This document shows positions 807-44,571 of a stretch of 64,000 nt of DNA, in pieces. Source of the DNA: a virus; the IMG/VR virus record IMGVR_UViG_3300045988_122072, positions 99,338-163,337 of that record. One strand, given 5' to 3'. The translations under genes were made by a program, and so were the position numbers. The notes beneath the pieces are model-generated. The model did no database searches. It was not told where the DNA came from and was given only the letters and a program-made list of their open reading frames with translations. Every line of letters begins with the position of its first letter. Within the stretch, counting starts at the first letter, position 1.

Positions 807-862
807 TTGACAAATTGTAAATACATGATATACTAATACAGGGTAAACAATACAAAATTAAT
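807..862 (+). promoter_or_regulatory. Sigma70-like promoter plus conserved leader box
   Basis: TTGACA 807-812, 16-nt spacer, TATACT 829-834. Box ACAATACAAAATTAAT lies at 847-862, directly before the RBS-like AGAGGATGG and ATG 879. Confidence 0.65.
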
Positions 863-878
863 AGAGGATGGTGTATAT

Positions 879-1034
879 ATGAAAACAGATAAGTATATTT
901 TATTTTTCAAACACAATGGAGTTAATAAATGGATTGACGCAAATAATCTATCACTGCTTAAAACAGTGCCGAATATTTGCGGGTGGATGACAGAATACAA
1001 AATTATTGACAGTATAACTGGAGAGGAGGTATAA
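879..1034 (+). CDS. Small hypothetical protein (51 aa, MKTDKYILFFKHNGVNKWID...)
   Basis: ATG 879 follows the promoter, box and a purine-rich RBS. Stop is TAA 1032-1034. It is below the ORF-track size cutoff and was translated by hand. Confidence 0.35.
   Translation: MKTDKYILFFKHNGVNKWIDANNLSLLKTVPNICGWMTEYKIIDSITGEEV
994..1006 (+). promoter_or_regulatory. Variant copy of the leader box (AATACAAAATTAT)
   Basis: Matches the core of the recurrent box. Lies about 30 nt upstream of ATG 1036, ahead of the RBS GGAGAGGAGG. Confidence 0.35.
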
Positions 1035-1035
1035 A

Positions 1036-2136
1036 ATGAGGGTGTATATGGACAATGCTGCTACAACTCCCATTTGTGAAGCAGCAAAGAAAGCTATTCT
1101 AGAAAATTTGGATGAGTTCTATAATCCCAACAGTTCTTATGAGACGGCTCGTACTGTCAAAGTAAAGGTAGAAGAAGCACGTGAAAAGATTGCGGAATTG
1201 ATTGGGGCAGAATCCAACGAAATCTATTTCACGTCTGGTGGATCAGAAGCAAATTCATGGGTGATGTGTAATGGATTTTCTGTTGCTTCTAATATTGAAC
1301 ATCATTCTATTAAATCAGATTTTAAAATTAATGTAAATTCAAATGGATTGATTGATTGTACAAAGTTTAAAACAAAGATACATGAAATGAAAGACAATGA
1401 TTTTTGTATTTCACCAAGCATTGCGTCATGTATGTTTGTAAATAACGAAATAGGGGTAATTGAACCAATTAAATACTTGGCAAAGATTGCACATGACAAT
1501 AATATGTTGTTTCATTCAGACGCAGTACAGGCCTTCCCTCATATGAAGATTGATGTAAAAAATCTTGGCGTAGATATGATGTCGTGTTCGGGGCACAAGT
1601 TTGGCTCTCCTAAGGGGATCGGCTTCCTGTATATTAAAAATGGAATTAGTGTTAATCCATTAATTAATGGTGGCGGACAAGAAAGAGGGATCCGAGGCGG
1701 CACGACCAATGTACTGGGCATCCTTGCAATGGCAGCAGCTTTAGAATATACAATCACGCATATGGATGAAAATAATGCTAAACTCTCTTGCTTATCAAAG
1801 AAATTAAAGGATAACTTACTTGGGGTAAAAGGAGTCACACTTAATGCAATTGATGCAAAAACTCCATGTATAGAAAGTATTTTAAACCTCAGGATTGACG
1901 ATGTGAAGAGTTCTGACCTAGTCACAATGTGTGATCTATATGGCATTGAGATTAGCTCTGGGTCGGCATGTAACGAAGGAACAGCAGAACCTTCTCATGT
2001 GCTCAAAGCTATTAGGCTCACAACCGAACAGGCATTAAGCAGCATTAGAATCTCACTATCTCATCTAAACACTGAAGAAGAAATCGACTATGTTTCTAAA
2101 ATGTTACCAAAAATTATTTCCAGATTACGCCAGTAA
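1036..2136 (+). CDS. Cysteine desulfurase / class V PLP aminotransferase (NifS/IscS-like)
   Basis: 366 aa. N-terminus 'YMDNAATTP', 'FTSGGSEAN', PLP-lysine context 'SCSGHKFGSPKGIGFLY', and C-terminal 'SSGSACN' with the active-site Cys context typical of NifS/IscS. Confidence 0.85.
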   Translation: MRVYMDNAATTPICEAAKKAILENLDEFYNPNSSYETARTVKVKVEEAREKIAELIGAESNEIYFTSGGSEANSWVMCNGFSVASNIEHHSIKSDFKINVNSNGLIDCTKFKTKIHEMKDNDFCISPSIASCMFVNNEIGVIEPIKYLAKIAHDNNMLFHSDAVQAFPHMKIDVKNLGVDMMSCSGHKFGSPKGIGFLYIKNGISVNPLINGGGQERGIRGGTTNVLGILAMAAALEYTITHMDENNAKLSCLSKKLKDNLLGVKGVTLNAIDAKTPCIESILNLRIDDVKSSDLVTMCDLYGIEISSGSACNEGTAEPSHVLKAIRLTTEQALSSIRISLSHLNTEEEIDYVSKMLPKIISRLRQ

Positions 2137-2141
2137 GGTAC

Positions 2142-2186
2142 TTGACAAATGAAGATTCCATGCTATAATAACAATACAAAATTAAT
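2142..2186 (+). promoter_or_regulatory. Sigma70-like promoter (extended -10) plus leader box
   Basis: TTGACA 2142-2147, 16-nt spacer, TGcTATAAT (TATAAT 2164-2169). Box ACAATACAAAATTAAT at 2171-2186, then GAAAGGAG. Confidence 0.7.
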
Positions 2187-2204
2187 TGAAAGGAGATTGA
2201 CACC

Positions 2205-2375
2205 ATGACAGAGGACAATCGTATTAAGGAAGAAGCCAAGAAGCAGAGAAATTTTTGGACATGTCCACGACCAGTGACTAAGGTTCTGCGCAACGCTAAG
2301 GCATACAACAGAGCCAAGGATCGTAAGGATAAACGATTGTATGAGGAAGATGAGGGTGTTGTCGAAGAAAGATAA
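2205..2375 (+). CDS. Small basic hypothetical protein (56 aa, MTEDNRIKEEAKKQRNFW...)
   Basis: ATG 2205 lies 9 nt after AGGAG (2191-2195) and directly downstream of the promoter/box. Stop is TAA 2373-2375. It overlaps the annotated start of the next ORF in another frame. Confidence 0.3.
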   Translation: MTEDNRIKEEAKKQRNFWTCPRPVTKVLRNAKAYNRAKDRKDKRLYEEDEGVVEER

Positions 2376-2769
2376 AAGTTATTTTAGAGCAGCTCAGGCA
2401 GTTAGTACACTATCGGATTTTAAAAGAGTAAATGTAGGAGCAGTATTGGTTTATAAACACAGAATTATTTCTAGCTCTTGCAATTCTCAGCGGACGCATC
2501 CTTTGCAGCAAAAACTTAATAAAGAGCGTTTTGAAGAGGAAACTCCTGCAAAGCTACATGCTGAAGTTAGTTGTCTTATTCCGCTGCTTGGAAATAAAGA
2601 TATTAAGTGGAGAGATTGCGAACTCTACGTATACAGAGAATATAAGCGTGGTGGGCTGGCGATGAGTCGCCCTTGCCCCTCCTGCCAAAAATTAATTAAA
2701 GAACTTGGCATTAAGACTGTCCATTACACGACTAACGGGGGATATGCCACAGAAGAATTTGAAATTTAA
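2341..2769 (+). CDS. dCMP/cytidine deaminase (zinc-dependent, ComEB-like)
   Basis: 'HAEVSCL' (H-A-E zinc/catalytic motif) and 'PCPSCQKLI' (PCxxC). About 140 aa, typical size. The start is uncertain (ATG 2341 or 2350). Confidence 0.8.
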   Translation: MRKMRVLSKKDKSYFRAAQAVSTLSDFKRVNVGAVLVYKHRIISSSCNSQRTHPLQQKLNKERFEEETPAKLHAEVSCLIPLLGNKDIKWRDCELYVYREYKRGGLAMSRPCPSCQKLIKELGIKTVHYTTNGGYATEEFEI

Positions 2770-2779
2770 GGAGATAGTT

Positions 2780-2938
2780 ATGAAAGAAGCATATTCTAAT
2801 CTATGTAAAGCATGTTATATTCGCATTATGAAGCCTTCAAAGAAAGAAATTAAGAAAATTGTAATGACGCCATATGAAACAGAATGTGAATGTTGCCATA
2901 AGACCAAACAGGTGGTTGATTATGCGGAGGACGATTAA
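2780..2938 (+). CDS. Small Cys-rich hypothetical protein
   Basis: AAGGAG lies 6 nt upstream of ATG 2780, an internal Met of track ORF 2705..2938. CxxC...CxCC pattern (CKAC...CECC). Confidence 0.45.
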   Translation: MKEAYSNLCKACYIRIMKPSKKEIKKIVMTPYETECECCHKTKQVVDYAEDD

Positions 2939-3171
2939 TGAAAGGTCTTCCATCTAAAGAAATTATTATGACAGAGATCAAGTCTCTAAAAGGCGAAACA
3001 TTTTATGTTACAACGACAGCTTTGCGCGACATATATTATATTTATAAAATTGCGGACAATGTTGCTACAAAACTTGGTAGTGGAAAGAGCCCAATGGTTT
3101 TGGAAGATAAGTACATTGGAGACCGAGATAAAGCATTAAAAAGATTGGAGAAAATGATAGATGGGCAATGA
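2938..3171 (+). CDS. Hypothetical protein
   Basis: 77-aa ORF tightly packed with its neighbours (start overlaps the previous stop). No motif recognised. Confidence 0.45.
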   Translation: MKGLPSKEIIMTEIKSLKGETFYVTTTALRDIYYIYKIADNVATKLGSGKSPMVLEDKYIGDRDKALKRLEKMIDGQ

Positions 3172-3559: not shown

Positions 3560-3598
3560 TTATGACAGAAGAAAATAGTATAAATATGGAGGGCAAAG

Positions 3599-4420: not shown

Positions 4421-4521
4421 TAAATGGAGCTATTAATGAGCTTACAAATACACTCAATGAGTGTAAAGTTTGTAATTGGGTAGCAAAAACATCTACATGG
4501 AATTAATAAGGAGAATAACTT

Positions 4522-6107: not shown

Positions 6108-6109
6108 AT

Positions 6110-8696: not shown

Positions 8697-8702
8697 CCAA
8701 TT

Positions 8703-8730: not shown

Positions 8731-8743
8731 GCATATTGACAAC

Positions 8744-8803
8744 TTGACAAATAGTAAATTCGTGTTATAATAATGGCAGAAACAAGAACAATACAAAATT
8801 AAA
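8744..8803 (+). promoter_or_regulatory. Sigma70-like promoter plus leader box
   Basis: TTGACA 8744-8749 (a second TTGACA lies at 8736-8741), 16-nt spacer, TGtTATAAT (TATAAT 8766-8771). Box ACAATACAAAATTAAA at 8788-8803 abuts the RBS AGGAGG. Confidence 0.65.
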
Positions 8804-17725: not shown

Positions 17726-18278
17726 TAGAAAAACTATTTTCTTAATTCTAGGGGAAAGTGGTTGTGGTAAAGACTATTTGGTGGACAGACTTTGCAAAAC
17801 TGGTCTAAAAAAACTTATTAGTCATACAACCCGTGAAAAGCGTAAAGACGAACCTGACACTAGCCACATTTTTTCAACATACGAAGATTATCAGAACGCC
17901 AAAACATCGAATGATATTATTGCAGAGACTTGTATCAATGATGTGTTATATTGGAGTACAAAGAGTCAGTTGGCAGATGCGGATTTGTATATTATCGACA
18001 ATGTTGGAACTGACATGTTGCTAAAGATGGGGTTGCCGTATAGATTTGTACGTATTTATATTAATGTACCAAAGGCTATTCGCAGAGAAAGAGCTGTTAA
18101 ACGCGGAGATAACATGGATACATATGCCAAACGTGCCGCTGACGAATTTGAGCAGTTCGCAAATATGAAGATTCACAATAGATATGATTATGCAGTTTCT
18201 AATATTGACAGTGCAAAAGCTGGTAGCATTATTAGATGGATTATTAATACCGAAAGAATTGGCACAGTACAAAATTAA
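17718..18278 (+). CDS. Guanylate-kinase-like P-loop nucleotide (dNMP) kinase
   Basis: 'ILGESGCGKDYL' (P-loop) and 'ISHTTREKRKDE' (compare the guanylate kinase 'SHTTR.PR.GE'). 186 aa. Confidence 0.65.
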   Translation: MDDRKTIFLILGESGCGKDYLVDRLCKTGLKKLISHTTREKRKDEPDTSHIFSTYEDYQNAKTSNDIIAETCINDVLYWSTKSQLADADLYIIDNVGTDMLLKMGLPYRFVRIYINVPKAIRRERAVKRGDNMDTYAKRAADEFEQFANMKIHNRYDYAVSNIDSAKAGSIIRWIINTERIGTVQN

Positions 18279-18279
18279 A
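18264..18279 (+). promoter_or_regulatory. Leader box copy (ACAGTACAAAATTAAA) overlapping the stop of the kinase gene
   Basis: The box encodes the last codons (..TVQN*) of 17718..18278 and sits directly before AGGAG and ATG 18291. Only a weak promoter candidate is present (TTGACA 18205-18210 / CATTAT 18227-18232). Confidence 0.45.
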
Positions 18280-18290: not shown

Positions 18291-18866
18291 ATGAAGTATA
18301 TTGTAGCTTTAGATTGTGATTGCGTCCTGAATAACCTTATTGAAAGAACTTGCCAGATGTTTAATGAAAGATATGGTGCAGATATTTCAGAAGAAACTTT
18401 CACTCAATATGATGTTTATAAGTGCCTATCATTTGAAGATGCAGAAAAGTTTAAGGCTCTGTGGCACGAACGTGAACTATGGGATTCTCTATCTCCAACA
18501 TATCATTCTCAGTGGGGAGCTAAAAAGCTTGTAGATGATGGGTTTAGTGTTTACATTGCAACCAGTACGCACTACGAAAACTTCCCATGGAAAGTTGAGT
18601 GGCTGAAACATTATTTCAAGTTCATTGATGAACGCCATATTATCTGTATTGGTGACAAGAGTATTCTAAACGTGGACGTTATGGTAGATGACCATACAGA
18701 TAATCTTATCAATAATTTACATTGTAATAGAGTCCTTGTAGAAAAACCTTGGAATATGAACGTGCACGATGAAGCTTATAGCATTAAACGTTGCACGAAT
18801 TGGGATGAAATTGTTGAGGCAGTGGAAGAATTTTATAAGCAGGATAAGGAGCTGATGAAGGATTGA
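18291..18866 (+). CDS. 5'(3')-deoxyribonucleotidase (HAD superfamily, NT5C/YorS-like)
   Basis: The N-terminal 'IVALDCDCVLNNL' is a variant of the HAD 'DxDxV' nucleophile motif. 'VMVDDHTDNL' is the terminal acidic motif. 191 aa, typical size. Confidence 0.6.
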   Translation: MKYIVALDCDCVLNNLIERTCQMFNERYGADISEETFTQYDVYKCLSFEDAEKFKALWHERELWDSLSPTYHSQWGAKKLVDDGFSVYIATSTHYENFPWKVEWLKHYFKFIDERHIICIGDKSILNVDVMVDDHTDNLINNLHCNRVLVEKPWNMNVHDEAYSIKRCTNWDEIVEAVEEFYKQDKELMKD

Positions 18867-19468
18867 ATACAAGAATTAATTATATTTCAGATTCTTGGAC
18901 AAGAATAAAAAATCATTGTAGAACAACTGTCAATAAGAAATTCACAGAAAAAGAGCCAACTGATAAGTTTAAGGAAGAACTTTTAATTAGCGAACATTCT
19001 CCTATTAGATGTCTTGAGGTTGATTGGACATGGGAGAATATTCCTTATTGGGTAAGTACGGAACTAAGCCGCCATAAGCATGAAAAGTTTATTAGTTCAC
19101 AGCGTGATGACAGAAATAATAATGAAATTCCTCGCGGAAAGAAACCACAAGATTCTCCCGTCACTCATGACGCATATGCAAATGCCCAGAATCTAATTGA
19201 CATGATGCGTAAAAGACTTTGTTTTATGGCAACCAAAGAAGCTAGAGAAGCGGCAGAAAATTTGAAATATGAACTACATAATTACGAACCACAACTAGCA
19301 AATGTGCTTATGCCGAATTGCTTATATAGAGCAGGATGTCCAGAGTTTGAAACTTGCGGATTTTGGAAGAAGTTCAAGGAAAAACATCCAGATGTAGATA
19401 TGACCGATATTAAAGAAAGATATCGAGCATATAATGAAGATTTTTATAAGAAATTTAATGAGGAGTGA
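18863..19468 (+). CDS. thyX: ThyX-like (flavin-dependent thymidylate synthase family), divergent
   Basis: 'EHSPIRCLEVDWTWENIPYWVSTELSRHKHEKFISSQRDD' parallels the ThyX 'H.S.lEh..ftf.i.gvSr....ql.RHR..S.sqqSqRY' block. It is short (201 aa) and starts at TTG, so the assignment is tentative. Confidence 0.5.
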   Translation: MNTRINYISDSWTRIKNHCRTTVNKKFTEKEPTDKFKEELLISEHSPIRCLEVDWTWENIPYWVSTELSRHKHEKFISSQRDDRNNNEIPRGKKPQDSPVTHDAYANAQNLIDMMRKRLCFMATKEAREAAENLKYELHNYEPQLANVLMPNCLYRAGCPEFETCGFWKKFKEKHPDVDMTDIKERYRAYNEDFYKKFNEE

Positions 19469-20271
19469 TGTCTGTGACTGTAGAACAATGGCTTGGTAAA
19501 GATAATAAAATTGGTATTGATATTTGGCACAAGAAATATCAGTACAACAATGAAAATTTTGACGAATGGTTAGATAGAGTAAGCGCTGGAGATAAAGAGC
19601 TAAAACAACTTATCATTGAAAAGAAATTTTTAATGGGTGGTAGAACACTTGCTAATCGTGGTACAAATAGTACTGGTAGCCTGTTTAATTGTTACTCCAG
19701 AGGCTATGTTGAAGATGACTATTCTGATATTATGGATGCTGCAAAAGACATTGGCGTAACATTTAAGGCTCAGGGAGGACAGGGCATTTCTCTTACTAAG
19801 CTTCGTCCAAAGGGCACACCAATCAAGAAAGAATATTTTTCTGATGGTATTGTACCATTTATGAAGATTTTTAATGAAGTTACCGCAGGGACTTCTCAGG
19901 GTGGGGCTCGAAAGGGAGCGCTTATGCTTTCTGTCGATGCTAGGCACAAGGAAGCAGAAACATTCATTAAGATTAAGTCAAAGGACGGAGAGATTGAAAA
20001 GGCGAATCTATCTCTTGAAATCGATGATGAATTTATGAGAGCCATTGAGAAGTATTATGATACTGGAGAAGTTGTCGTGCTGCATGAAAAGCGTAATTAT
20101 GCTGGTCATGAAGTAGAATATGATGTAACGCCAATTAACATTTTCAATATGCTTGTAGATAATTGTTATGATTGGGCAGATCCTGCATGTTTGTTTGTTA
20201 ATAGGTTTAGAAATTATAATCTAATGCAGTATGATGATGAATATGAAATTGAAACTTGCAATCCTTGTGGT
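19465..20271 (+). CDS. nrdJ: Class II (B12-dependent) ribonucleotide reductase NrdJ, exon 1
   Basis: The ORF reads through to '..IETCNPCG' and then runs into junk and a stop (WLTCRK*). The conserved active-site motif NPCGEQPL is completed only by exon 2. The exact start is ambiguous (19465, 19468 or 19474). Confidence 0.8.
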
Positions 20272-20716
20272 TGGTTAACTTGCCGCAAGTAAAACATCCC
20301 GTAAAATCGGTGAAGCCTACACCGAAAGGCATGGTAATACCGAGTTCCCACTGCATCACAGGGGAATGTAACGCATAGGCGATGAGCGGATATGAGAGCA
20401 ATAATTCGCCCACGAGTACGGGACATTGGCACATAACGGAGTGATAATATTGATTATATATAAAGTAATAAACATTATTAATGGCAAGGTGTACAAATGA
20501 ATATTATCAATGAAAAATATGATCTTAAAGACATTAGAAGCCTATATCCTTGCTTTAATGTTAAAAATTCAAAAGATCTTGCAAACTGTTTAAAAGATTA
20601 TGTGCTAAATGAAAATATATGCTGAACTGGTCTGAACTGACAGACGTATCGGGTTATACCCGTATGAGAGAAATCTCCAGAAGCTATGGATAAAAAGCCA
20701 TAGCGATAACACACAG
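20272..20716 (+). ncRNA. Group I-like self-splicing intron in nrdJ (445 nt, no intact HEG)
   Basis: The 5' exon ends in U (20271) and the intron ends in G (20716). A P1 can form between exon CUUGUGGU (20264-20271) and intron GCCGCAAG (20282-20289), with a U.G pair at the splice site. GC-richer paired-looking flanks surround an AT-rich central insert. Removal restores NPCG|EQPLPKHGACCLSSLNLSEFV in frame. Confidence 0.7.
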
Positions 20717-22189
20717 GAGCAACCACTTCCAAAGCATGGAGCATGTTGCTTGTCATCCCTTAACCTATCTGAGTTTGTTGTAAACCCATATACTCCAACT
20801 GCGCATTTGAACACAGAAGATTTCCTTCATGCTATTGATGTTGGAATTAGAACTCTTGATAAGCTAATTGACGAAAACTACAATAGGCACCCGCTACAGC
20901 AGCAAAGAGATATGTCATATAATTATAGAAACATTGGTCTCGGCATTTTTGGATATGCAACTGCTCTAATGAAGCTTGGACTTAAGTATGGTTCAAATGA
21001 AGCAATCGAATTTACTGATGATGTATTTTCACTTTTATTCAAACGAGCAGTATTCGCAAGCAATAATCTTGCAAAAGAATTAGGTACATATCCGAAGTAT
21101 AAGGAGTGCGTATTTGATAGCGACATTATTAAGAATCATTTTACACCAGATGAAATTGATGGTCTAAAAGAACACGGTCTTAGAAACTGCTCTTTAATTT
21201 CAATTGCTCCGAATGGGTCTCTTGCTACTTTACTTGGAGAATCTGGTGGATGTGAGCCTGAGTTTGCACTTAAGTATACACGTAGAACTGTCGGTATGAC
21301 AGACGGCGAAGATACTTATTATGATGTTTACTGTAAAGCAGCAAAAGAATATATGGATGCAAACCATACAGATATCCTTCCAGACTATTTTGTTGGCTCT
21401 GCAGATATTCCTTGGCAAAATAGAGTGCTAACACAGGCGGCTATGCAAAACCATGTAGATACTGCAATTAGTTCTACAGTAAATATGCCTAATTCTGCTA
21501 CAAAAGAAGATGTAGCTCATATGTATTTACTTGCGTGGTCAACTGGCTGTAAGGGCATTACGATGTTTAGAGATGGATGTAAACGCCTTGGCATTCTGAC
21601 AACAGACAAATCTGAAAGTGGCACAGACGAAAATGGAATTAAGCCTTATGAACTTCCACGTGGCGCTATTATTGAATGTTCTAGTGACCTAGTTGGTAAA
21701 AAGCGCAAGCTTACTACGGGGTGTGGTAGTTTACATGTTCTTGCATTTTTTGACCCATATGATGGCTCACTACAAGAAGCATATTTCAATAAGGGGTCAA
21801 CTGGAGGATGCGCCAACTTTATGACTGGTCTTAGCAGAACAGTTTCACTATTGTGCAGAGCAGGTGTTGATATTATGACCATTAAAGATCAACTAGATTC
21901 TACTGGCGCTTGTCCGAGCTATGCCGCAAGAACTGCAACTAGACATGATACATCTAAGGGGTCATGTTGTCCAATGGCAATTGGTAATGCATTAGTTGAA
22001 ATGTATAATGAGATGCAACAAGATATTGGTGATAATGAAGAGGAAATTAATACTGATACAGTTGTTCATCAGATAACGAAGCCTGAACAAATTAATTCAA
22101 ACGATAGATGCCCAGAATGTGGGTCTATTCTTGAACACGTTGGCGGCTGTGATTTGTGTAAAAATTGTGGATTTACTCACTGTGGGTAA
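20717..22189 (+). CDS. nrdJ: Class II ribonucleotide reductase NrdJ, exon 2
   Basis: The in-frame extension upstream of track ORF 20750.. reads EQPLPKHGACCLSSLNLSEFV. 'KLTTGCGSLHVLAFFDP.DGSL.E.YFNKGSTGGCANF' is the NrdJ C-terminal signature, followed by a terminal Cys4 zinc ribbon. Confidence 0.8.
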   Translation, partial: EQPLPKHGACCLSSLNLSEFVVNPYTPTAHLNTEDFLHAIDVGIRTLDKLIDENYNRHPLQQQRDMSYNYRNIGLGIFGYATALMKLGLKYGSNEAIEFTDDVFSLLFKRAVFASNNLAKELGTYPKYKECVFDSDIIKNHFTPDEIDGLKEHGLRNCSLISIAPNGSLATLLGESGGCEPEFALKYTRRTVGMTDGEDTYYDVYCKAAKEYMDANHTDILPDYFVGSADIPWQNRVLTQAAMQNHVDTAISSTVNMPNSATKEDVAHMYLLAWSTGCKGITMFRDGCKRLGILTTDKSESGTDENGIKPYELPRGAIIECSSDLVGKKRKLTTGCGSLHVLAFFDPYDGSLQEAYFNKGSTGGCANFMTGLSRTVSLLCRAGVDIMTIKDQLDSTGACPSYAARTATRHDTSKGSCCPMAIGNALVEMYNEMQQDIGDNEEEINTDTVVHQITKPEQINSNDRCPECGSILEHVGGCDLCKNCGFTHCG

Positions 22190-22190
22190 T

Positions 22191-22206
22191 ACAATACAAA
22201 ATTAAT
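22191..22206 (+). promoter_or_regulatory. Leader box copy (ACAATACAAAATTAAT) immediately after the nrdJ stop
   Basis: Perfect 16-mer starting 2 nt after the nrdJ stop codon. Followed by GGAGG and, further on, the HNH-AP2 gene. No strong -35/-10 is visible upstream. Confidence 0.45.
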
Positions 22207-22247
22207 TTATTGGAGGAATGAAATATGGATAACAAGGTGGTGAATAA

Positions 22248-22991
22248 ATGGTTAAAGTAACGAATAATTTAATTGACAAAATATTCGGAAGGCTTACCGT
22301 CATAAAACAAGGCGAAGATTATATATGCCCAAATGGAAAACATGTTGCACAGTGGTATTGCAAATGTAGCTGCGGTAATCAAGATCTTAAATTAATACGT
22401 GGATCTAGTCTAACAAGTGGTAAAACAAAGTCGTGTGGATGTTTATCGAAAGAAAATGGAATTAAACAAGGAAAAAAGTTTAAAAAATATAATAAATATG
22501 ATTTATCTGGAGAATATGGAATTGGATATACTAACAAAAATGAAGAATTTTGGTTCGATATTGAAGACTATGATAAGATACGAAACTATTGTTGGTATTA
22601 TAATTCAAATGGTTATGTATGTTCACAAGATGAAGAACATAAGCACATCTATTTACATCGATTAATAATTGGGGTAACAGATCCCATGATAGTAATAGAC
22701 CATATTAAACATCCAGCAAATAAAGAACATAAAGTGGATAATAGAAAATCAAATTTAAGAAAAGTCACACAGGTTGAAAATAATAGAAATAAACATAAGC
22801 AGATAAACAATATTAGCGGCACTTCTGGTGTCTATTATGATAATAAAAATAAAAAATGGGTGGCTCAAATTAGTTTGAATAATAGAACAAAATATGTTGG
22901 ACAATCTAACGATATACAGGATGCAATTGACATTAGAAAAGAAGCGAAACAAAAATATTATCAAGAATATGCATTTAATATAAATAATTAA
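22248..22991 (+). CDS. Free-standing HNH (HNH_3) endonuclease with AP2 DNA-binding domain
   Basis: 'IDHIKHPANKEHKVDNRKSNLRKVTQVENNRN' is the HNH_3 motif. 'SGTSGVYYDNKNKKWVAQISLNNRTKYVGQSNDIQDAIDIRKEA' is an AP2 domain. The N-terminal 'FGRLTV...C.C.CG......SL.SG.TKSCGC' block is typical of phage homing endonucleases. Confidence 0.8.
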   Translation: MVKVTNNLIDKIFGRLTVIKQGEDYICPNGKHVAQWYCKCSCGNQDLKLIRGSSLTSGKTKSCGCLSKENGIKQGKKFKKYNKYDLSGEYGIGYTNKNEEFWFDIEDYDKIRNYCWYYNSNGYVCSQDEEHKHIYLHRLIIGVTDPMIVIDHIKHPANKEHKVDNRKSNLRKVTQVENNRNKHKQINNISGTSGVYYDNKNKKWVAQISLNNRTKYVGQSNDIQDAIDIRKEAKQKYYQEYAFNINN

Positions 22992-24134: not shown

Positions 24135-24149
24135 TCATTAAGCCTTGCT

Positions 24150-24445
24150 ATGCATTGCAAATTGTGGTACAATCAAATTGTGGTAAATGATGTGGTCAAA
24201 TACAAAACACATTCACACAAACACTAGTCGAATCAATACTTTGAAGTTCTTACCTAGGTAGGTTTAGTTTATCCATTTGAATAAAAATTAGCGCAATAAA
24301 TATTATCATTATATAATCAACAAACCTAGTATTTTCAATGGATTAGCCCTAATATATAAATCATAAGCATTTCACTAACATTCATTGTTTTTGATGTTTT
24401 TTCACCATATTTAATACCATAATTGTGGTATAAATGTGGTACGAA
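24150..24445. repeat. Repeat-rich xis-int intergenic region (putative attP arm / operator sites)
   Basis: The 12-mer CAAATTGTGGTA occurs at 24158-24169 and 24174-24185. ATGTGGTC lies at about 24189-24196. AATTGTGGTA is at 24421-24430 and AAATGTGGTA at 24432-24441. Inverted ATACCA/TGGTAT occurs at about 24414-24431. A 10-bp palindrome TACCTAGGTA lies at 24251-24260. Confidence 0.55.
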
Positions 24446-24454
24446 ATTTACAAC

Positions 24455-24509
24455 TTGACCACATTAGTTAACATAAATTATAATAGTAGTACAATTAATT
24501 TTGTATTGT
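24455..24509 (+). promoter_or_regulatory. Sigma70-like promoter for int followed by an INVERTED leader box
   Basis: TTGACC 24455-24460, 18-nt spacer, TATAAT 24479-24484. ATTAATTTTGTATTGT at 24494-24509 is the reverse complement of ACAATACAAAATTAAT. Together with ACAAT at 24491-24495 it forms ACAAT-N9-ATTGT. Confidence 0.55.
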
Positions 24510-24525
24510 TAAAGGAGTGGTTATT

Positions 24526-25668
24526 GTGGCAAAGAAGAGAATGAACGGAGAAGGATCTTGGACACAGCGCGATAATGGTAAATGGAAGTTATCTGTATCA
24601 TACAAGGGGTTTGGCAGGAAATATTTCTATGGCACCAAGCAAGAGTGCTTAAACAAAAAGCAAGAATTTGAAGCGTTATTGTCAACAGGTATTGTTGGAG
24701 AGAAAGACGTTTTATTTAAGGATTTTGCTCATTCATGGCTTAAAAATATTAAACAGCCATCGATTAAACCAGCCTCATATGATAGACTTGCAGACATAAC
24801 AGAAAATTTTTTAATTAAACAGTTAGGGGATTTGGCGTTGCAACAAATAGATGATAGTTTAATTCAAACCATGATAATAAATAAGTTTAAAACAGACGGG
24901 TATTCACGTTCAACAATTCGCAAAGCTTATGGAACATTGGGGCAAATTTTTGATTATGCTATAGCCAGAGGGAAAGTAAACAAAAACCCAATAGACAATG
25001 TGGTGATGCCAAAACGAGAACTATTTGAAGAAAAAGAGCAAAGATTCTTTTCAGAAGAGGAAAGAGCTAGGTTGGTAAACGCCTGCTATATGAAATATAG
25101 TAACGGGGAAAGAAGATTTAAATATGGTGCATTTTATGTTTTCTTAATGTATACTGGGCTTAGACTTGGCGAAGGACTCGCACTTAAGTGGAAATATATT
25201 GACTTTGAAAAAAGGACAGTCTATGTATCAAGAACCATAGTATATGTAAAAGACCGAACAAAAAATGATGGAAGCAAAATTCTTATTGATCAATCAACTA
25301 CAAAGGGAGGAAGAGGGAGAACCGTATTTTTATCAGACATGGCAATAGAGGCTCTTAACGATCTGAAAGAAGAAAAAGGATATGATCCAGAACAGTACAT
25401 TATACGCTCAAGATATAATACAATGGTTCGCCCTGCTGATGCGTATAAGGTATTCCAGCGTATATTAAAACAAGCAGACATAGAACAGTGTGGGCCACAC
25501 TCATTGAGACACACGTTCGTAAGTGCGCTTATTGACCAAGGTGTTCCAATAACAATGATTTCGAAAATAGTTGGGCACGCAAAAATTGATGTTACAATGA
25601 CAGTATATTCTCATTTGTTGCAAGAAACACAAAATGCATCTATGTCTGTTATAAAAAATCTTAAGTAA
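24526..25668 (+). CDS. int: Tyrosine recombinase / phage integrase
   Basis: Catalytic contexts 'TGLRLGEGLAL' (Arg), 'HSLRHTF' (HxxR) and 'GHAKIDVTMTVYSHL' (His...Tyr). N-terminal 'GEGSWTQRDNGKWKLSV' arm-binding-type motif. The start is ambiguous: GTG 24526 (8 nt after AGGAG), track start 24517, or ATG 24541. Confidence 0.9.
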   Translation: MAKKRMNGEGSWTQRDNGKWKLSVSYKGFGRKYFYGTKQECLNKKQEFEALLSTGIVGEKDVLFKDFAHSWLKNIKQPSIKPASYDRLADITENFLIKQLGDLALQQIDDSLIQTMIINKFKTDGYSRSTIRKAYGTLGQIFDYAIARGKVNKNPIDNVVMPKRELFEEKEQRFFSEEERARLVNACYMKYSNGERRFKYGAFYVFLMYTGLRLGEGLALKWKYIDFEKRTVYVSRTIVYVKDRTKNDGSKILIDQSTTKGGRGRTVFLSDMAIEALNDLKEEKGYDPEQYIIRSRYNTMVRPADAYKVFQRILKQADIEQCGPHSLRHTFVSALIDQGVPITMISKIVGHAKIDVTMTVYSHLLQETQNASMSVIKNLK

Positions 25669-40300: not shown

Positions 40301-42892
40301 CCTTTCAGTTCTTGCATTTTGAGCAGCTTCTTGTCTCTTCTTTGTAATCAGCTTGTTAAGCAGTGACGCATTTTTAACCACGTATCCATTTGTTGTGTCA
40401 ATTGCATCTGCATATTCTTTTTCATCACCAATGAGTGTTTTTAATGCTTCGCCCTGTTCGTCAGTAAGTTTTATTTTATCATAAACTACTTCGTTTTGAA
40501 CAGATTGTGCACTAGTAACTTTATCAATTTCATCAGCATAATTAGAAAAAGTACTACCAACTGGATCGACTTTATTAAGCTCAGCGTGTGCGGCGGCAGA
40601 ACCTAAAGAATTAATTTGATCCACAGCATCTTGTGTACTAAGCCCAATTTTATTTAACTCATTCCTAAATTCGCTATAATCTGAACCATTTAACGAATCT
40701 GCTGTAAGTTCTCCAGTCTCCGCCAAAGAATATAATTTCTTTTTAACCTCTGGATACTTTTCTAATAGAGCATCAAATTGTTCGGTATAATATTCACCTG
40801 GGTTAATTGTTTTATCTATATCAAGTGCCATTTGCTTAAGCTTATTTGCGAAATCATCATCGACATTTTCGCCATAATTATCTAGATAATCATATAGCTC
40901 TGTTCCATATGTAGATAATGTTTCTTTAAGATTTTGCATTGATGATTCAATTGACTTCTTTTTAGAATCTAGGGCAGACTTTTCGTCCTCACTCATTGCA
41001 CTAGTATCTGTATTAATAAGCTCATTCCATTCTTGCCTTAACTCATTATATTTTTCAATGCCCTTTTGAATATAGCCTTCTTTGTCTATACTACCATCAG
41101 AAATATATTTTAAATCTCCATTCAGTTCATCAGATATTTGTGCCTCAACTCTTAGTAACTCTGCTACTGCCTCATCGCTTAATTCTCCCCATTGCGATAC
41201 ATCGGCAAGCATATTATACAACTTTTCAGAATACGGTTTAATTGCATTTCTTAAATTATCATTAATGATTTGATTATTTTTTGCATTTTCTATTTCAGCC
41301 TTGGCAATTGTGGCATTACCATACCTTTCGTCATCTTTATTGGTTTTAACTTCTTCTATGCTTAAGTTTTTAACATTAAAATCTTTTTTATAATCTTCTT
41401 TTGTTTCTTTCTGTAGTTCTTTTTGCTTAGAATCTTTGCTTTCGTTTAACAGTCTTAATCTTCTTTCCAATTCCTCATTGGTTTGTTTTAAAGTTTCTAA
41501 TTCTTCTTTTTCTACAAAAGATAGGTTATGTTTTCCTTCTAGCTCTTCAATTCTATTTTTAGTAGTCTCAAGTTCAGAATTTAGGCTTTCAATTTCATTA
41601 TTTAGATCTTGAATTTCATTCTTTAATTTCTCTGATGCTGGAGTCATATTAGCTATCCAAGTAACCAACGATATAACTAAAGTAATAGCCATCAAAATCC
41701 ATCCAACCGGATTAGACGCCATTAAAGATTTCAGTGCTGCCGCAACGCCATGAATAGACGTAGAAAGTCCTTGATTCGCAGCGGTCAAACCAAATGCAGA
41801 TATAATTTCTGCGCCCTGAGCGGCAGTTAATGTCCCCGTTGCTACCGCTTCTTGAACTTTTGCTAATGTCAGTTCTGTTTCTCCCTGAGTTAAAAGCCAG
41901 TTGGTTGATTCAGCAGAAAGCTTTACTGCTCCCTCAGCAGCCATTGCTGCAGCATTTGCAGCAGTAACCGTAGTTTGTTCAGTTTTTGCAGTCGTTACTT
42001 GGGCCTCTGATACTGCCTGTTGTATATTCGCTTTATCTACTCCGTTTTTGGCCATTGCTTCTTCTATTTGTGCCTTTGTTAAACCAGCAGAAGCAAGAGC
42101 TGCCGCCTGTTGCTTCGCGGTTAAATCACTAACTGCGGCAGCATACGCACTAAGATTTTGCACATTAAATTCGGCAGCAGATATTTTACCAGCTTCTCCA
42201 AGTCCATTTAATGATTGAATTGCCTTAATTTTCTCCAATGCCTGTCCATAATTAGATACATTGGCGGAAATTTCTTTAAACATAGTAACTGGGTTTATCT
42301 TTTTAGAGATTAATAAATATGAAACTACTCCTGCTAATACTGATTTAAATAACCCAAATGAGTCTACAGCTTTTACAACTGCGGTTCCTAAATTAACGAA
42401 AAATTTAATCCAGCTACTGTCGAGCGCATCAGACCACATTGTCTGAACTGCATTTTTAAATAGGGTGATTCTTCCCTGAATGCTGTTAAGTTGTTTTTCA
42501 TTTTCAGCCATTGCAGAACCTTCTGCATCTAATGCGTCTTGATATGCACCTTCAAGGTCTTCAATATTGGTAAGCATTGCAGCCATAGCATTTGAACGGT
42601 TTTTACCAGCGAGCATTTCAAGTAATGCCGCCTGATCAATGTCGCTCATATCTTTCCAGACAGTCGCAATTTCTTTTATAATATCATATGTTGCCTTATA
42701 GTCGCCGGTTTCAGTTAAAATATCTACACCAGTTAAAGCTTTAACTTTAGATTGAAGCTTGCTGACACTCTCTACTACATTATCAGTTTCTTCGCCTAGT
42801 GATTCCAATTCCTCTACACTTGTACCTCTAATACGTAGTGAGATGGTACGGAGGGCACTTCCTACGCTTGATGGATCCTGTAATACTTTATT
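34358..42892 (-). CDS. Tape measure protein, exon 2 (2,844 codons)
   Basis: The in-frame extension upstream of track ORF (34358..42808) reads NKVLQDPSSVGSALRTISLRIRGTSVEELESLGEE.., the second half of the TP901-type TMP core. TM segments (WILMAITLVISLVTWI) are followed by about 2,000 aa of helical sequence. There are two copies of the 'GTAHASGNWG...LVGELG.E....FNHKQT....NG.INSRGKAY' end module and a C-terminal SH3-like segment. Confidence 0.8.
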   Translation of the reverse strand, partial: NKVLQDPSSVGSALRTISLRIRGTSVEELESLGEETDNVVESVSKLQSKVKALTGVDILTETGDYKATYDIIKEIATVWKDMSDIDQAALLEMLAGKNRSNAMAAMLTNIEDLEGAYQDALDAEGSAMAENEKQLNSIQGRITLFKNAVQTMWSDALDSSWIKFFVNLGTAVVKAVDSFGLFKSVLAGVVSYLLISKKINPVTMFKEISANVSNYGQALEKIKAIQSLNGLGEAGKISAAEFNVQNLSAYAAAVSDLTAKQQAAALASAGLTKAQIEEAMAKNGVDKANIQQAVSEAQVTTAKTEQTTVTAANAAAMAAEGAVKLSAESTNWLLTQGETELTLAKVQEAVATGTLTAAQGAEIISAFGLTAANQGLSTSIHGVAAALKSLMASNPVGWILMAITLVISLVTWIANMTPASEKLKNEIQDLNNEIESLNSELETTKNRIEELEGKHNLSFVEKEELETLKQTNEELERRLRLLNESKDSKQKELQKETKEDYKKDFNVKNLSIEEVKTNKDDERYGNATIAKAEIENAKNNQIINDNLRNAIKPYSEKLYNMLADVSQWGELSDEAVAELLRVEAQISDELNGDLKYISDGSIDKEGYIQKGIEKYNELRQEWNELINTDTSAMSEDEKSALDSKKKSIESSMQNLKETLSTYGTELYDYLDNYGENVDDDFANKLKQMALDIDKTINPGEYYTEQFDALLEKYPEVKKKLYSLAETGELTADSLNGSDYSEFRNELNKIGLSTQDAVDQINSLGSAAAHAELNKVDPVGSTFSNYADEIDKVTSAQSVQNEVVYDKIKLTDEQGEALKTLIGDEKEYADAIDTTNGYVVKNASLLNKLITKKRQEAAQNARTERSQARLKYYELYKKIKQLTGANGELAQANAKEINALYKEMGAVERTIAKYSLLEQKLLGAADAYQKYEDAKSADEAKDYGSKAEDMISGLIEGLQSAKLGTESFKAAVAGMIPEDVYAGFDTVEEKVAAIANYLKNSDFSKYFTLKFSDDGTLESAEMTLDNVQAFIESAQEKGVFTNKGDWQHFELSSDIKTLDDFCDKMKITKEMAFAMFTEIDSYDAEWLNGDFGSVFDQLDLGLEGNIFMATKNLAELDVALANNEIGVEEWAQKYQEANSKLQGCAEDARKNAVEYQNVTKEVTNLKDEVEQATKKLNEMNQPNSGYTQEEINAQTKKVKELTEQLGEALKKKYNLEEPTEVSIQLALDDIDSQMAVWKANNNELAVKANIANIDDSKLVELGEDGRYKIKPDVEITDDERQKLQQYVDLLNDKGVINLLVENKEEAKAQIEEVKTAAEAAKKAIEALPDPSVDSTAAVKSINNLIDAIDRVPTGVTVTTTYREVNENQTATKHSGRRSRYELNSTMANGTAHASGNWGAESADTSLVGELGPELRVRGNRWDMLGENGAEFADVKKGDIIFNHKQTKSLLKNGYINSRGKAYASGTNVISNIFDKLKLNKLAKYAEEMCAQYEKLVNGNVDLRKRPHLSPSYEHDLAMGGGYNSFIGSDGEIYASTSAETVTIGDKNKYTIDITPVLENGDVLTSDALADYIDGLVTNGSTQDLLDSDKYNLVIRAVPGEYDEKDWTGFEGELSKYKDGYLNTIMEMFSLGGDKAVESSGFSSVGLAGVVKDLQGNGSYTGKEVASAIDDTSDGMRELDNLINQYVTDVLNAKSLADDIGTDLSQTKYGNVDTNDRQELYWDEESLDKYGDAIDSWGMKADDLVGTYSTLLSSVGEFDGEDISFTPILQTENGPQLLDSNTVDKYIWGLIDEAKQNDGKWTSDELFQLDTKGLEVDGVVVKNLLEGIGQDADKTAKLLHYVGDTGAISNLESEIESTSSELVATGENVSAVQAKLDKLNATSISDKTFTITTAYQTIGKGTEQTVHTPGASGRLTIYADGTAHASGNWGLPQAEDDALVGELGMETVVDPKTGKYYTVGDNGAEFVDLPKNAIIFNHKQTEELFKNGHINSRGKAYSEGNAHVTIVPDYTTPTYYSGAKNDNFWTDLNDAADSLSDAGDDLSDAANDFEEMFDWFAVLLEEIDDDLNYMSAALENAVGISAKNDIQDQMINVNKYKLTELGEGYKLYADYAAQLLEKIPQQYQELAKNGGVALTEFLGEANQEVVEAINNYREWAQKASDVRTQQQQVKKEITSLSLQKVQTIADEYDRVITKITTLNDLLQANVDLIDEQGERTSAVMYEEMIKNSIKELDELQKKRNDMQKEFDAQVSAGNIDVGSEEWYEGVAAIQDVDKAIIDCRKEIEGFQNSINQLHWDNFDGLIKAIDNVGNEISNLGDLIDDEDIADEMGNWTNEGITKMGLLAQEMERAQYRAKQYAEQIEYLNQEYAAGKYSTDEYNEKLQELKDGQWDSIKSYEAAKDALIALNKTRVDAAKNAMQEEIDAYNELINKKKEELQLSKDAHDFSKQVEEQQKNIANIQKQLAAIAGDNSASAIARRKKLEAELAAAQEELDELYYSHSIEKQQDALDDQAENYQDEKEKEMEALDEYLKNVEQVIADSFATITGNTEVVAGTLKEIADEYGINLSEAITNPWEQGVIAIGTYQDQLNTSTSAFTAQLEAIKKQLLDLQAAADETARHLIDATNQNANKTSSATYTTPTPSTPQQPSAPQKPAAPANGSSVTVKKSATHFTRDGGNGTRMQSWVPGSTFTVYQVSGSEVLIGRNGQYTGWIKLSDIEGYAKGIKKVPNDQFAITDELGLEELVLHADTNGRLQYLSKGSSVIPSDITDNLMKLGTLDPKDILDRNKPKIGAPYIINNSIELNMSFGNMINIEHADRDSIPDIKDAVKAQLDSYMKGVNNSLKRFTR

Positions 42893-42934
42893 CTTTTATA
42901 TTTAATACGTTTCGCAACAACGTATTGCATGTTA

Positions 42935-44080
42935 TTATTGATAATATTTATTTAAAAATTCATTCCATTGTTCCTCAGTGTTGTCACCATAACCATAAAT
43001 ATTATGAAATTGCTTATGAATATTTTCTGATATACATATATAACTATGATATTTTTCTTGCAAATCAAAAAATGTTTGGAATAATTCGTCTATTTGTTCT
43101 CCCGAATATTCTTTTACATCACTATATATTGGAAAGTTTATCTTATCAATTGCTTCGTCCAATATTAAATTAAACCCTCTTATATGATGAACAACTATAT
43201 GGGAGCGGCATCCAGTTATTTTACATGTATAATTATTTGCTTCTTTTATTTTATTTTTCCAAGGAATAAGCTTTTTTCTAATATATTCCGCAATAGTATC
43301 ATATCCCCTTTTATCTATTGGCCTATATAGTTTTAAGCTCCATAAATGTTGTGCAATTGCTTTTACTCCCCTATTAAGATACGATGCCAATTCTTCATTT
43401 GTATATTTTAAATAATTTTCTTTTAAATACAAATTCTCTTCTTCTGTATATGTTCGATTGGAATAATAAAAACTTTTTAAATTCAATTTTCTAGCTTGTC
43501 CTAATATCGACGATTTTGTACGTTTTGGGAGCATTGCCATTACCTCATCAAACGATATATTTGAATAATTCTCTTTTAAAATATCTATTTCATCATTTGA
43601 CCATTCTCTGTTAGATGTTAAATTTAATTCTACTGCCTTCCTGCTTATTTCTTTAACGGATCTATTGTTATTAAGCAAAGTACGAATATTTTTATATGGA
43701 ATTTTCCCATAATTGTTCATTAGTATATTTATTTCATTATCATTCCACGAAATAGCATTATAACGACATTCTTTAGAACAATAATGATGTGTATTCTTAT
43801 CAACTTCAGATATTTTTCTAAAGAATTGTCTTCCACAAAATTCGCATTTGCATTCTTCCTTCTTTTCTGTAGATTTTGTTCTACATTCAACACTACAAAA
43901 AATTTGTCCAGAATAAGCTGGCCTAAATCTTTCTCCACAAATCTCACAATTTCTATATTTTAGTTTTCCGTTATTTCTTTTAAATTCATTCATACAGTTT
44001 CTACTACAATACTTAGTATTTTCAAAATAATCTGAAAATTCTTTTTTGCAATTATTACATATATGATTATATTTTCCCAT
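42935..44080 (-). CDS. Intron-encoded HNH homing endonuclease with N-terminal zinc fingers and SANT/Myb-like repeats
   Basis: 381 aa. Three CxxC...CxxxC units (CNNCKKEF..CSRNC, CEICGERF..CSVEC, CEFCGRQF..CSKEC). Three 'W(S/N)(N/D)xEIxIL.xNY'-type repeats. C-terminal HNH 'CKITGCRSHIVVHHIRGFN...NIHKQFH'. Confidence 0.8.
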   Translation of the reverse strand: MGKYNHICNNCKKEFSDYFENTKYCSRNCMNEFKRNNGKLKYRNCEICGERFRPAYSGQIFCSVECRTKSTEKKEECKCEFCGRQFFRKISEVDKNTHHYCSKECRYNAISWNDNEINILMNNYGKIPYKNIRTLLNNNRSVKEISRKAVELNLTSNREWSNDEIDILKENYSNISFDEVMAMLPKRTKSSILGQARKLNLKSFYYSNRTYTEEENLYLKENYLKYTNEELASYLNRGVKAIAQHLWSLKLYRPIDKRGYDTIAEYIRKKLIPWKNKIKEANNYTCKITGCRSHIVVHHIRGFNLILDEAIDKINFPIYSDVKEYSGEQIDELFQTFFDLQEKYHSYICISENIHKQFHNIYGYGDNTEEQWNEFLNKYYQ

Positions 44081-44113
44081 AATTTTATCTCCCGTATATT
44101 ATCAAAATAAATT

Positions 44114-44287
44114 TCATTTTCTACTATAAAAAATAGCCAATGCATTAAAAAGATCTGACGATTTTGTATATTTATATGTAGTTACACCATTTATAATTTT
44201 AACAAAGGATGGTTTTATACCAATTGTTAATAAATAATCTCTCTCTGGTGTATATTGCGTAGAATATTCTTTATCAAATTTTTTCAT
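44114..44287 (-). CDS. Small intron-borne hypothetical protein (57 aa)
   Basis: GAGAGGGA lies upstream of ATG 44287, an internal Met of track ORF 44114..44311. It is the first ORF after the intron-internal promoter/leader. No family could be assigned with confidence. Confidence 0.4.
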   Translation of the reverse strand: MKKFDKEYSTQYTPERDYLLTIGIKPSFVKIINGVTTYKYTKSSDLFNALAIFYSRK

Positions 44288-44525
44288 ATTTCCCTCTCTA
44301 AATAATAACATGCCAATATATTTCTATATTGAATAGACCATATCTTCATCCTCAGCATTACCTGTTAGGAGCACACCATTTCGTTTAAAGGTATTTAACC
44401 AACGCCATTTGCGATTGCGTCCTACTCCTATTGATTTGAGTATTCGGGATTTTACCCTTATTTTATAATCAATTAGATATTCTCAAATCCCTTCATGGGG
44501 ATGGCCGTTGAACCTTTTGCTTGAT

Positions 44526-44571
44526 TTTAATTTTGTATTGTATATTATATCACAAAATTTAAATTTGTCAA
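44526..44571 (-). promoter_or_regulatory. Intron-internal sigma70-like promoter (extended -10) plus leader box
   Basis: On the minus strand: TTGACA (44571-44566), 16-nt spacer, TGaTATAAT (TATAAT 44549-44544), then ACAATACAAAATTAAA (44541-44526). Confidence 0.65.

Follow-up and report, generated by a model that had tools for sequence, protein, structure and literature searches.

A recurrent asymmetric box at early promoters of an uncultured SPβ-like gut phage is a probable operator of an MrpR-family repressor

The master repressor of the Bacillus phage SPβ, MrpR (also YopR), has the fold of a tyrosine recombinase but is catalytically dead, and it binds a 15-bp element named SPBRE at about 10 promoter regions (PMC10516654). 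This binding and the repression of PaimR and PyosX were established by chromatin affinity precipitation with sequencing (ChAP-seq), electrophoretic mobility shift assays (EMSA) and lacZ fusions, and the protein elutes as a monomer (PMC10516654). In the literature that we searched, MrpR and SPBRE were reported from SPβ-like phages of Bacillus only. Cluster A mycobacteriophages offer a second point of comparison, as their L5 gp71-type repressors use stoperators, many short asymmetric sites distributed genome-wide (PMC9283540, PMC6550527). Here, we analyzed a stretch of 64,000 nucleotides (64 kb, hereafter the window) from the IMG/VR virus record IMGVR_UViG_3300045988_122072 (positions 99,338 to 163,337), in which an asymmetric box of 15-16 bp recurs between promoters and ribosome-binding sites (RBSs). 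The window is part of a temperate phage of approximately 155 kb, probably of gut Lachnospiraceae, with SPβ-like machinery. With a probability of roughly 80%, we interpret the box as a double-stranded-DNA operator of the same kind as SPBRE, namely the asymmetric putative binding site of an MrpR-family master repressor.

Nine exact copies of ACA(A/G)TACAAAATTAA(A/T) (full pattern ACARTACAAAATTAAW) are present in the window, starting at 847, 2171, 8788, 15706, 17035, 18264 and 22191 on the plus strand and at 24494 and 44526 on the minus strand, and all of them lie where a first-pass annotation of the sequence had placed them. That annotation had proposed to discard the motif if its frequency was explained by AT bias, an explanation that fails, since dinucleotide-preserving shuffles of the window gave an expected count of 0.00 for the nine copies seen. 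Among all 12-14-mers of the window, the box was by far the most over-represented and its edges were sharp. A degenerate copy had also been listed at 994-1006; a plus-strand match exists there (992-1007), with two mismatches, and is possibly a weak site; an identical sequence was recovered only from L125 and L126 (L numbers designate loci taken from relatives). A second match with two mismatches, at 53579 on the minus strand, is within a coding sequence and looks like chance. The palindromic core AATTAATT attributed to the box did not hold as a general property, as it requires a T at position 16 and another directly after it. The copies are given below with their surroundings (ORF, open reading frame).

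847-862, plus strand: box, ACAATACAAAATTAAT, 12 nt past the -10 of promoter 807-834; touches the RBS of ORF 879-1034
992-1007, plus strand: degenerate box, AGAATACAAAATTATT, two mismatches; the RBS of the NifS-like gene (start 1036) is 13 nt further on
2171-2186, plus strand: box, 1 nt past the -10 of promoter 2142-2169; predicted transcription start within the box
8788-8803, plus strand: box, 16 nt past the -10 of promoter 8744-8771; touches the GGAGG of gene 8817-9398
15706-15721, plus strand: box on the left end of a TnpB insertion, 17 nt past the -10 of hybrid promoter 15660-15688
17035-17050, plus strand: box (A4G), 1 nt past the -10 of promoter 17006-17033; gene 17065-17394 is next
18264-18279, plus strand: box (A4G) inside an operon; touches the RBS of the NT5C nucleotidase gene 18291-18866
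22191-22206, plus strand: box with no strong promoter; precedes the RBS region of the HNH endonuclease gene 22248-22991
24494-24509, minus strand: inverted box, past the -10 of P_int and ahead of the integrase RBS (gene 24517-25668)
44526-44541, minus strand: box, 2 nt past the -10 of promoter 44571-44544; within a group I intron-like element

Seven of the nine exact copies adjoin an RBS, which bears out the adjacency originally claimed for nearly all copies. The two copies said to have no convincing promoter and to sit at upstream stop codons do so: the TAA of box 18264 doubles as the stop codon of ORF 17718-18278, and box 22191 begins 2 nt past the stop of the ribonucleotide reductase (RNR) ORF 20750-22189. 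A weak TTGACA-16-CATTAT match (18205-18232), 31 nt upstream of box 18264, is a caveat on the label "no promoter". The 38 kb late arm of the window, on the minus strand, holds no box except the intron copy 44526, in agreement with the reported absence from late intergenic regions.

The promoters to which these copies relate are the following.

807-834, plus strand: sigma-A-type promoter, TTGACA-16-(TG)TATACT, from the consensus scan
2142-2169, plus strand: consensus promoter, TTGACA-16-(TG)TATAAT, from the consensus scan
8744-8771, plus strand: consensus promoter, TTGACA-16-(TG)TATAAT, from the consensus scan
15660-15688, plus strand: hybrid promoter, with the -35 from the phage target site and the spacer and TATACT from the TnpB element
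17006-17033, plus strand: promoter TTCACA-16-(TG)TATAAT, its -35 rebuilt by the right end of the TnpB element
24455-24484, plus strand: P_int, TTGACC-18-TATAAT, its -35 overlapping an inverted integrase arm-type repeat
44544-44571, minus strand: consensus promoter, TTGACA-16-(TG)TATAAT, inside the intron

Six copies had been described as lying behind clear promoters, and the tie is stronger than that: the six best sigma-A-like promoters of the window (807, 2142, 8744, 15660 and 17006 on the plus strand, 44571 on the minus strand), all scoring at least 11/12 and all with an extended TG, each carry a box 1-17 nt past the -10. P_int is followed by an inverted copy.

Relatives were collected by scanning IMG/VR for the 15-mer, which returned many contigs of 80-170 kb with several copies each, and by exact-protein look-ups, which led to metagenomic contigs of 154-163 kb. 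We surveyed the geometry of about 160 box sites in these relatives. The distance from the box to the Shine-Dalgarno sequence (SD) was 0-7 nt in 50 of 68 scorable copies, while the distance from the -10 to the box was bimodal, with 0-1 nt in 16 and 10-18 nt in 14 of 30 promoter-linked copies. Another 44 SD-adjacent copies had no recognisable sigma-A promoter, and five were embedded in a promoter as cTTG-ACAATACAAAATTAAT-nTGnTATAAT. One spacer-embedded copy drives a tRNA gene, which has no RBS, and some copies precede intron RNA with no SD close by. Non-redundant promoters of the clade with a box beginning 0-2 nt past the -10 numbered 29, and 46 of 55 non-redundant TG-extended consensus promoters clade-wide had a box within about -50 to +31. 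In L198, two boxes sandwich the -10 of one promoter; a 162.6 kb contig binned with a Faecalimonas metagenome-assembled genome has many spacer copies plus a promoter with boxes on both sides of the -10. One relative holds at least 15 copies. No box was found in three late-region loci of 22 kb each (L128-L130). In a scan of genome collections, every box in promoter context was on a contig that was either phage-sized or short and metagenomic; Lachnobacterium bovis and Lachnospiraceae C7 were rejected as cultured lysogens, as both have the same single match in a coding sequence, with no promoter context. A full-text literature search with the box sequence and its reverse complement returned no relevant paper.

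This geometry bears on whether the box works as DNA or as RNA, two roles to which the first-pass annotation had given equal weight. With the commonest spacing, 0-2 nt past the -10, the expected transcription start is inside the box, the first ~5 conserved bases would be lost and only ~10 nt would be transcribed, and spacer-embedded copies are not transcribed at all from their own promoter. An element acting in the mRNA leader just 5' of the SD, whether on translation (enhancer or operator) or on the processing or stability of the RNA, would account for the 50 of 68 copies lying 0-7 nt from an SD, for the intergenic copies without a strong promoter that overlap or touch an upstream stop codon, and for the mRNA orientation of nearly all copies. 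However, a 5' untranslated element should be complete and in sense orientation in the transcript, and it is not in the spacer, 0-2 nt, inverted and tRNA-driving copies: the inverted copies at int and at the mrpR-like gene described below would give the complementary RNA, and the copies ahead of the tRNA gene and of intron RNA have no nearby SD. Moreover, box and SD show no pairing potential, Rfam finds nothing at the boxes, and the SPβ equivalent has the same SD adjacency yet is a proven protein-binding DNA site. A leader function is therefore highly improbable in our view, and the equal weighting was abandoned, chiefly on account of the spacer copies, the start sites within the box, the tRNA-driving copy and the inverted copies. 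A -35-type activator site (MotA-like) was also rejected, because with an RBS and start codon ~10-20 nt on there is no room left for a -10 and a leader.

A DNA operator calls for a binding protein, and a candidate is encoded in the relatives. A phmmer search with SPβ MrpR against translated ORFs retrieved homologues of ~295 aa in three box-bearing contigs (E = 1e-10 to 1e-12); tblastn with the same query missed the homologue. The protein encoded at L213:10001-10888 matched PF22822 (MrpR_N_CB) with 53.5 bits and PF22823 (MrpR_C_cat) with 27.0 bits (cutoff 27 each), and it aligned over its full length with SPβ MrpR at 28% identity. A PDB sequence search gave the MrpR/YopR structures 8A0A, 8BJ6 and 8BJV as well as 9RD5 (E about 4e-10 to 2e-9). 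The protein had no Phage_integrase match in Pfam, whereas the neighbouring upstream recombinase scored 110.9 bits. The HxxR and GH..Y motifs are not visible in its sequence or in the alignment with MrpR, and as far as sequence can tell it has lost the catalytic residues of tyrosine recombinases.

Fetching the relatives of this MrpR-like protein yielded 30 loci, 19 of a close clade (66-100% identity) and 11 distant (22-28%). Each of the 19 close loci has between 2 and 6 exact boxes, which add up to 80 and without exception are on the gene strand, whereas none of the 11 distant loci has an exact box. The eight close relatives of the window, found via ORF 8817-9398, all have the MrpR-like gene and are all among the 19. 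The co-occurrence of repressor gene and box is thus perfect across these loci. In addition, the spacer of the mrpR-like promoter contains an inverted box that deviates from the pattern at one or two positions, for example TTGACTaaATTAATaTTGTATTGTATAAT; such a near-box is present at 19/19 close-clade loci. One distant clade (L234, L237 and L240; ~25% identity) has an element of its own, (A)TAATGWTTTAATCAAAA, in six copies per locus on a single strand (at 494, 4460, 10966, 13297, 14112 and 16230 in the 20 kb locus L234), which touches the SD, follows stop codons or lies just upstream of the -35. Other recurrent motifs, GAAAATAGGGGGTA and AAGGGTGGTGC, were observed in L235. The ribbon-helix-helix regulator that the first-pass annotation had put forward for EMSA is not the best candidate, given an MrpR-family gene located outside the window in all close relatives examined.

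The nine TG-extended promoters left over from the 55 counted above all represent a single orthologous promoter, located shortly after the repressor gene. It lies at 11276-11303 in L213 and at the orthologous spot in L217-L228, ~390 nt downstream of the mrpR-like gene, and is the only strong TG-extended promoter of the clade without a box. Its leader contains a hairpin (aagggcac…gtgccctt) and extends about 300 nt into the next box; this RNA could be a lysis-lysogeny switch transcript.

The same co-occurrence would arise if the box were the DNA site of another protein, such as a lytic shut-off factor, the small HTH_17 Xis-like protein or a host transcription factor, with the MrpR-like gene merely co-inherited: shared ancestry could link the box to the MrpR-like clade, each of the two being a lineage marker, binding of the MrpR-like protein to the box is our extrapolation, and even SPβ MrpR is only moderately specific in vitro, its authors suspecting additional factors (PMC10516654). 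We nevertheless consider another binder unlikely. The homologous SPβ system pairs exactly these two components, the near-box in the mrpR-like promoter was present at all 19 loci, and separate repeated elements that obey the same placement rules occur in a distant MrpR clade and in SPβ. Boxes in promoter context were also restricted to phage-sized or short metagenomic contigs, the isolates showing one coding-sequence match.

For a direct comparison with SPβ, we derived an SPBRE consensus, (A)CAAATACAAAAAATATGTATAT, from NC_001884 and mapped its copies there. SPBRE and the box have the 9-mer AATACAAAA in common and agree at 11/16 ungapped positions, a likeness that may partly be chance as both are A/T-rich, and their promoter-embedded forms are similar (TAGACAAATACAAATAATATGTATATAAT in SPβ, TTGACAATACAAAATTAATATGATATAAT in the box family). 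As in the present lineage, all functional SPBRE copies are co-oriented with transcription. At yopV, the order is promoter, 6 nt, SPBRE and SD, the element being SD-adjacent; at yopM, it touches AGGAGG; and at yonX, two SPBRE sites surround the promoter in the same arrangement as in L198. Both are large temperate phages of Firmicutes with a YonO-type polymerase and an asymmetric element of ~15 bp at many promoters, and in both a repressor with MrpR_N_CB and MrpR_C_cat domains is encoded downstream of a genuine recombinase gene, which recalls yopP-yopR. They differ in consensus ((A)CAAATACAAAAAATATGTATAT versus ACARTACAAAATTAAW), and the repressors are 28% identical. SPβ has a Bacillus host and the serine recombinase SprA, whereas the phages studied here have gut Lachnospiraceae and a tyrosine integrase, and unlike SPβ they lack a yopQ homologue between the recombinase and repressor genes. 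The box is also more abundant, with nine copies in 64 kb and at least 15 in one relative versus roughly 12-13 SPBRE copies in the whole of SPβ, many of those here having no strong promoter. Binding has been shown experimentally for SPβ only.

The shared polymerase suggests another function. Box-bearing contigs contain a 656-aa ORF with a DFDGD motif, a Pfam RdRP match (PF05183, 29.7 bits, cutoff 23.8) and 28% identity to SPβ YonO (E = 3e-32), and from these sequence features it is taken to be a YonO-type two-barrel RNA polymerase. YonO relatives were encoded in 204 of 259 candidate IMG/VR stretches, many of the 80 loci that were kept coming from contigs of 80-170 kb, and the homologue occurs lineage-wide, including close relatives of the window (L265 and L274).

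Examples of the YonO-type gene, found among the L244-L295 set: L084, 345-2312; L265, 6001-7998 (contig 3300045988_107099)

The box could thus be the promoter of this single-subunit polymerase, with transcription starting at or just past its 3' end in a T7-like geometry; genes read at first from the neighbouring host promoters would in this way be expressed in a middle phase. T7-type and YonO promoters (PMC5467207) and the box have in common a sharply bounded asymmetric motif of 15-23 nt, co-oriented with genes, near an RBS and with its own polymerase in the lineage; a purine-rich sequence and an SD follow the box within 0-7 nt, and the promoter sequence of YonO is undefined even in SPβ (PMC5467207). 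This reading also accommodates the 44 SD-adjacent copies without a recognisable sigma-A promoter, the presence of the box on selfish genes and its concerted variation between sister clades. In one such clade (L259, L264, L266-L271 and L289), located through YonO, 15 of 16 non-redundant copies read ACAATACAAAATTATA (13) or ...TTATT (2), whereas the window clade uses ...TTAAT or ...TTAAA; the variant may mark a separate immunity group.

The distribution of the box, however, is at odds with what such a polymerase does in SPβ, where YonO starts at a single site upstream of yonK and transcribes the late genes for structure and lysis (PMC5467207). Late operons here are free of boxes, as seen in the three 22 kb loci and, apart from the intron copy, in the 38 kb late arm of the window. 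SPβ itself has an SPBRE-like site directly ahead of yonO, but no SPBRE near yonK or the mapped YonO start. The copies at int and mrpR are inverted relative to the genes that they precede, many copies form part of the spacer of a sigma-A promoter, and at one promoter the -10 lies between two boxes. In several clades, the box or its clade variant stands directly ahead of the YonO-type gene; in the variant clade, the order is a strong sigma-A promoter, 16 nt, box, SD and yonO, so the polymerase gene is itself behind a host-type promoter with the box between -10 and SD. Lastly, presence of the box follows the MrpR clade perfectly. Missing from late operons, sometimes inverted, lying within host-type spacers and tracking a repressor clade, the box is very unlikely to be a polymerase promoter.

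We therefore favor the DNA operator, one of the options named in the first-pass annotation, on the strength of the repressor gene of the relatives and the box geometry. By analogy with the SPβ experiments, the MrpR-like protein would bind the box and repress. In a lysogen, repressor on spacer copies or on copies 0-2 nt past the -10 would occlude the host sigma-A polymerase, and copies 10-18 nt past the -10, or intergenic copies without a strong promoter, would act as stoperator-like roadblocks to escaping or read-through polymerase. Every strong early promoter would thereby be silenced, together with the promoters of the TnpB, intron and free-standing HNH genes and of int, the integrase being kept off through the inverted copy at P_int. 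In relatives, the gene of the YonO-type RNA polymerase would be silenced too, and with the box upstream of yonO the late genes would therefore need no boxes. Autoregulation would result from the inverted, imperfect copy that the repressor gene has in its promoter.

Several points weigh against this interpretation. The pairing of repressor and box relies on homology, co-occurrence and layout, the C-terminal Pfam match (MrpR_C_cat) is exactly at threshold, and the repressor gene is outside the 64 kb window itself. It was not retrieved for some box-bearing contigs, such as 3300022661_000062, or for the variant-box clade, all represented by partial genome stretches. A simple repressor would require neither the tight spacing between box and SD (0-7 nt in 50/68) nor a co-orientation with genes that is nearly absolute, and both are explained only by short leaders and by analogy with SPβ and stoperators. 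In addition, the concerted change of the box between sister clades also fits co-evolution of a polymerase and its promoter, and a box on selfish genes could equally mean that it promotes expression.

The orientation of the copies is where the stoperators of Cluster A mycobacteriophages become informative. Those sites, like the box, lie in short intergenic gaps, in a single orientation relative to transcription, at promoters and inside operons, and their variants differ between sister lineages. The operon-internal, one-orientation trait is found here as well, with 80 of 80 exact boxes on the gene strand and 44 SD-adjacent copies without a recognisable promoter. The stoperator repressor recognises its asymmetric site as a monomer, and SPβ MrpR is monomeric too. 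The systems differ in their proteins, a two-domain helix-turn-helix repressor versus a tyrosine-recombinase-like candidate binder, and in host phylum. Stoperators are spread across the phage genome (PMC9283540), whereas the late arm here has no sites, and the roadblock effect, demonstrated for stoperators (PMC9283540), is carried over to the box by analogy. It is possible, although we put it forward only tentatively, that MrpR-type "dead recombinase" repressors act as orientation-dependent roadblocks, a Firmicutes counterpart of stoperators with an independent origin and a different fold.

Selfish elements of the window carry the box. A TnpB-only element of the IS200/IS605 type (15676-17015; tnpB 15787-16899) has entered a phage promoter precisely at its -35; L122 has the empty site, cctcTTGACAAATA|TTATAAT. 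The left end of the element brings a spacer, a TATACT and its own box, resulting in the hybrid promoter that controls tnpB, while the right end (…GGTAGTTCACAAATA) restores a TTCACA -35 for the next gene. TTGAC may be the target-adjacent motif of the element. The box was rejected as a guide or target of TnpB, as the omega-RNA scaffold ends near 16979 (judged by eye) and the guide would then be the flanking promoter sequence. The second element, at 44314-44732 on the minus strand, matches the full-length group I intron model RF00028 with 39.9 bits (gathering score 50; E = 3e-8), so that the intron location given for copy 44526 is upheld by a match under the gathering score. It sits between a 3215-aa tape-measure ORF and a 2816-aa ORF (region 42935-44732) and contains a consensus promoter with a box, behind which come a 65-aa ORF (44311-44114, downstream of box 44526) and an HNH endonuclease ORF (44080-42935).

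As for the phage itself, no deposited phage proved closely related when 48 kb of the window were compared by megablast with a phage collection. The nearest deposited relatives of the tail protein are from Faecalimonas, Blautia and Evtepia phages, which makes a host among the Lachnospiraceae probable. By protein look-up, the first ORF of the window was found in no record, and a late-arm protein returned late-region context only. The left arm, on the plus strand, encodes nucleotide-metabolism and DNA-repair genes, including NifS-like, dCMP deaminase, Thg1-like, NAD-dependent ligase, guanylate-kinase-like, NT5C nucleotidase, RNR and dUTPase-like genes. Two of these are unusual auxiliary genes, the homologue of the Thg1-like tRNA-His guanylyltransferase (10724-11557) and the NifS-like class-V aminotransferase (1036-2136). 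Further along are an xis-like HTH_17 gene, the tyrosine integrase and the minus-strand arm with tail, tape-measure and lysis genes. An Rfam scan of the whole window at gathering thresholds returned nothing, and no tRNAs were found.

The integrase is catalytically intact, with its R, HxxR and H..Y motifs present, and the gap between xis and int (24135-24516) is attP-like, with four or five ATTGTGGTA / ATGTGGT arm-type repeats. From these two features we conclude that the phage is temperate and was sequenced in its excised form. They also led us to reject the window integrase as an MrpR-like dead recombinase acting on the box. An inverted repeat in this region covers the -35 of P_int, which suggests that the integrase controls its own promoter.

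The RNR gene (region 19465-22991) is probably split by an intron or intein, because ORF 20750-22189 begins at position 230 of the Pfam barrel-domain profile. The good RBS past box 22191 is that of a short ORF of 11 codons (start 22225), and the HNH ORF starts at 22248 in another frame. Among the relatives, L213 (12855-16214) encodes an AAA_24/Sak4-like protein and a DnaB-like helicase, the same kinds as in the yorG-yorL replication module of SPβ, and L103 encodes a RecJ-like exonuclease and a PHP-type DNA polymerase III alpha of ~1070 aa, labels that come from reading the sequence and not from a profile search.

What is most likely new here is an SPBRE-type operator with a different consensus and a denser, stoperator-like usage in an abundant, uncultured lineage of SPβ-like gut phages. 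It would extend the MrpR/SPBRE switch to a widespread lineage of temperate gut Lachnospiraceae phages of ~150-170 kb, and the operator sequence, the candidate repressor and the gating of yonO together provide testable predictions on the control of lysogeny. With the box excluded as a candidate, the search for the still undefined YonO promoter becomes narrower. The operator on the TnpB element and on the homing-endonuclease genes points to how selfish elements plug into a phage regulatory circuit. Should the repressors indeed act as orientation-dependent roadblocks, forward copies would tightly silence the lytic genes and the inverted copies at the repressor and integrase promoters would serve autoregulation, while resident selfish elements would have captured the operator, staying silent in lysogens and firing on induction. 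The …TTAAT and …TTATA variants would then define heteroimmunity groups among these abundant ~155 kb gut phages. The box and its clade variants may serve as a marker of early promoters, and of likely immunity groups, in metagenomic phage genomes.

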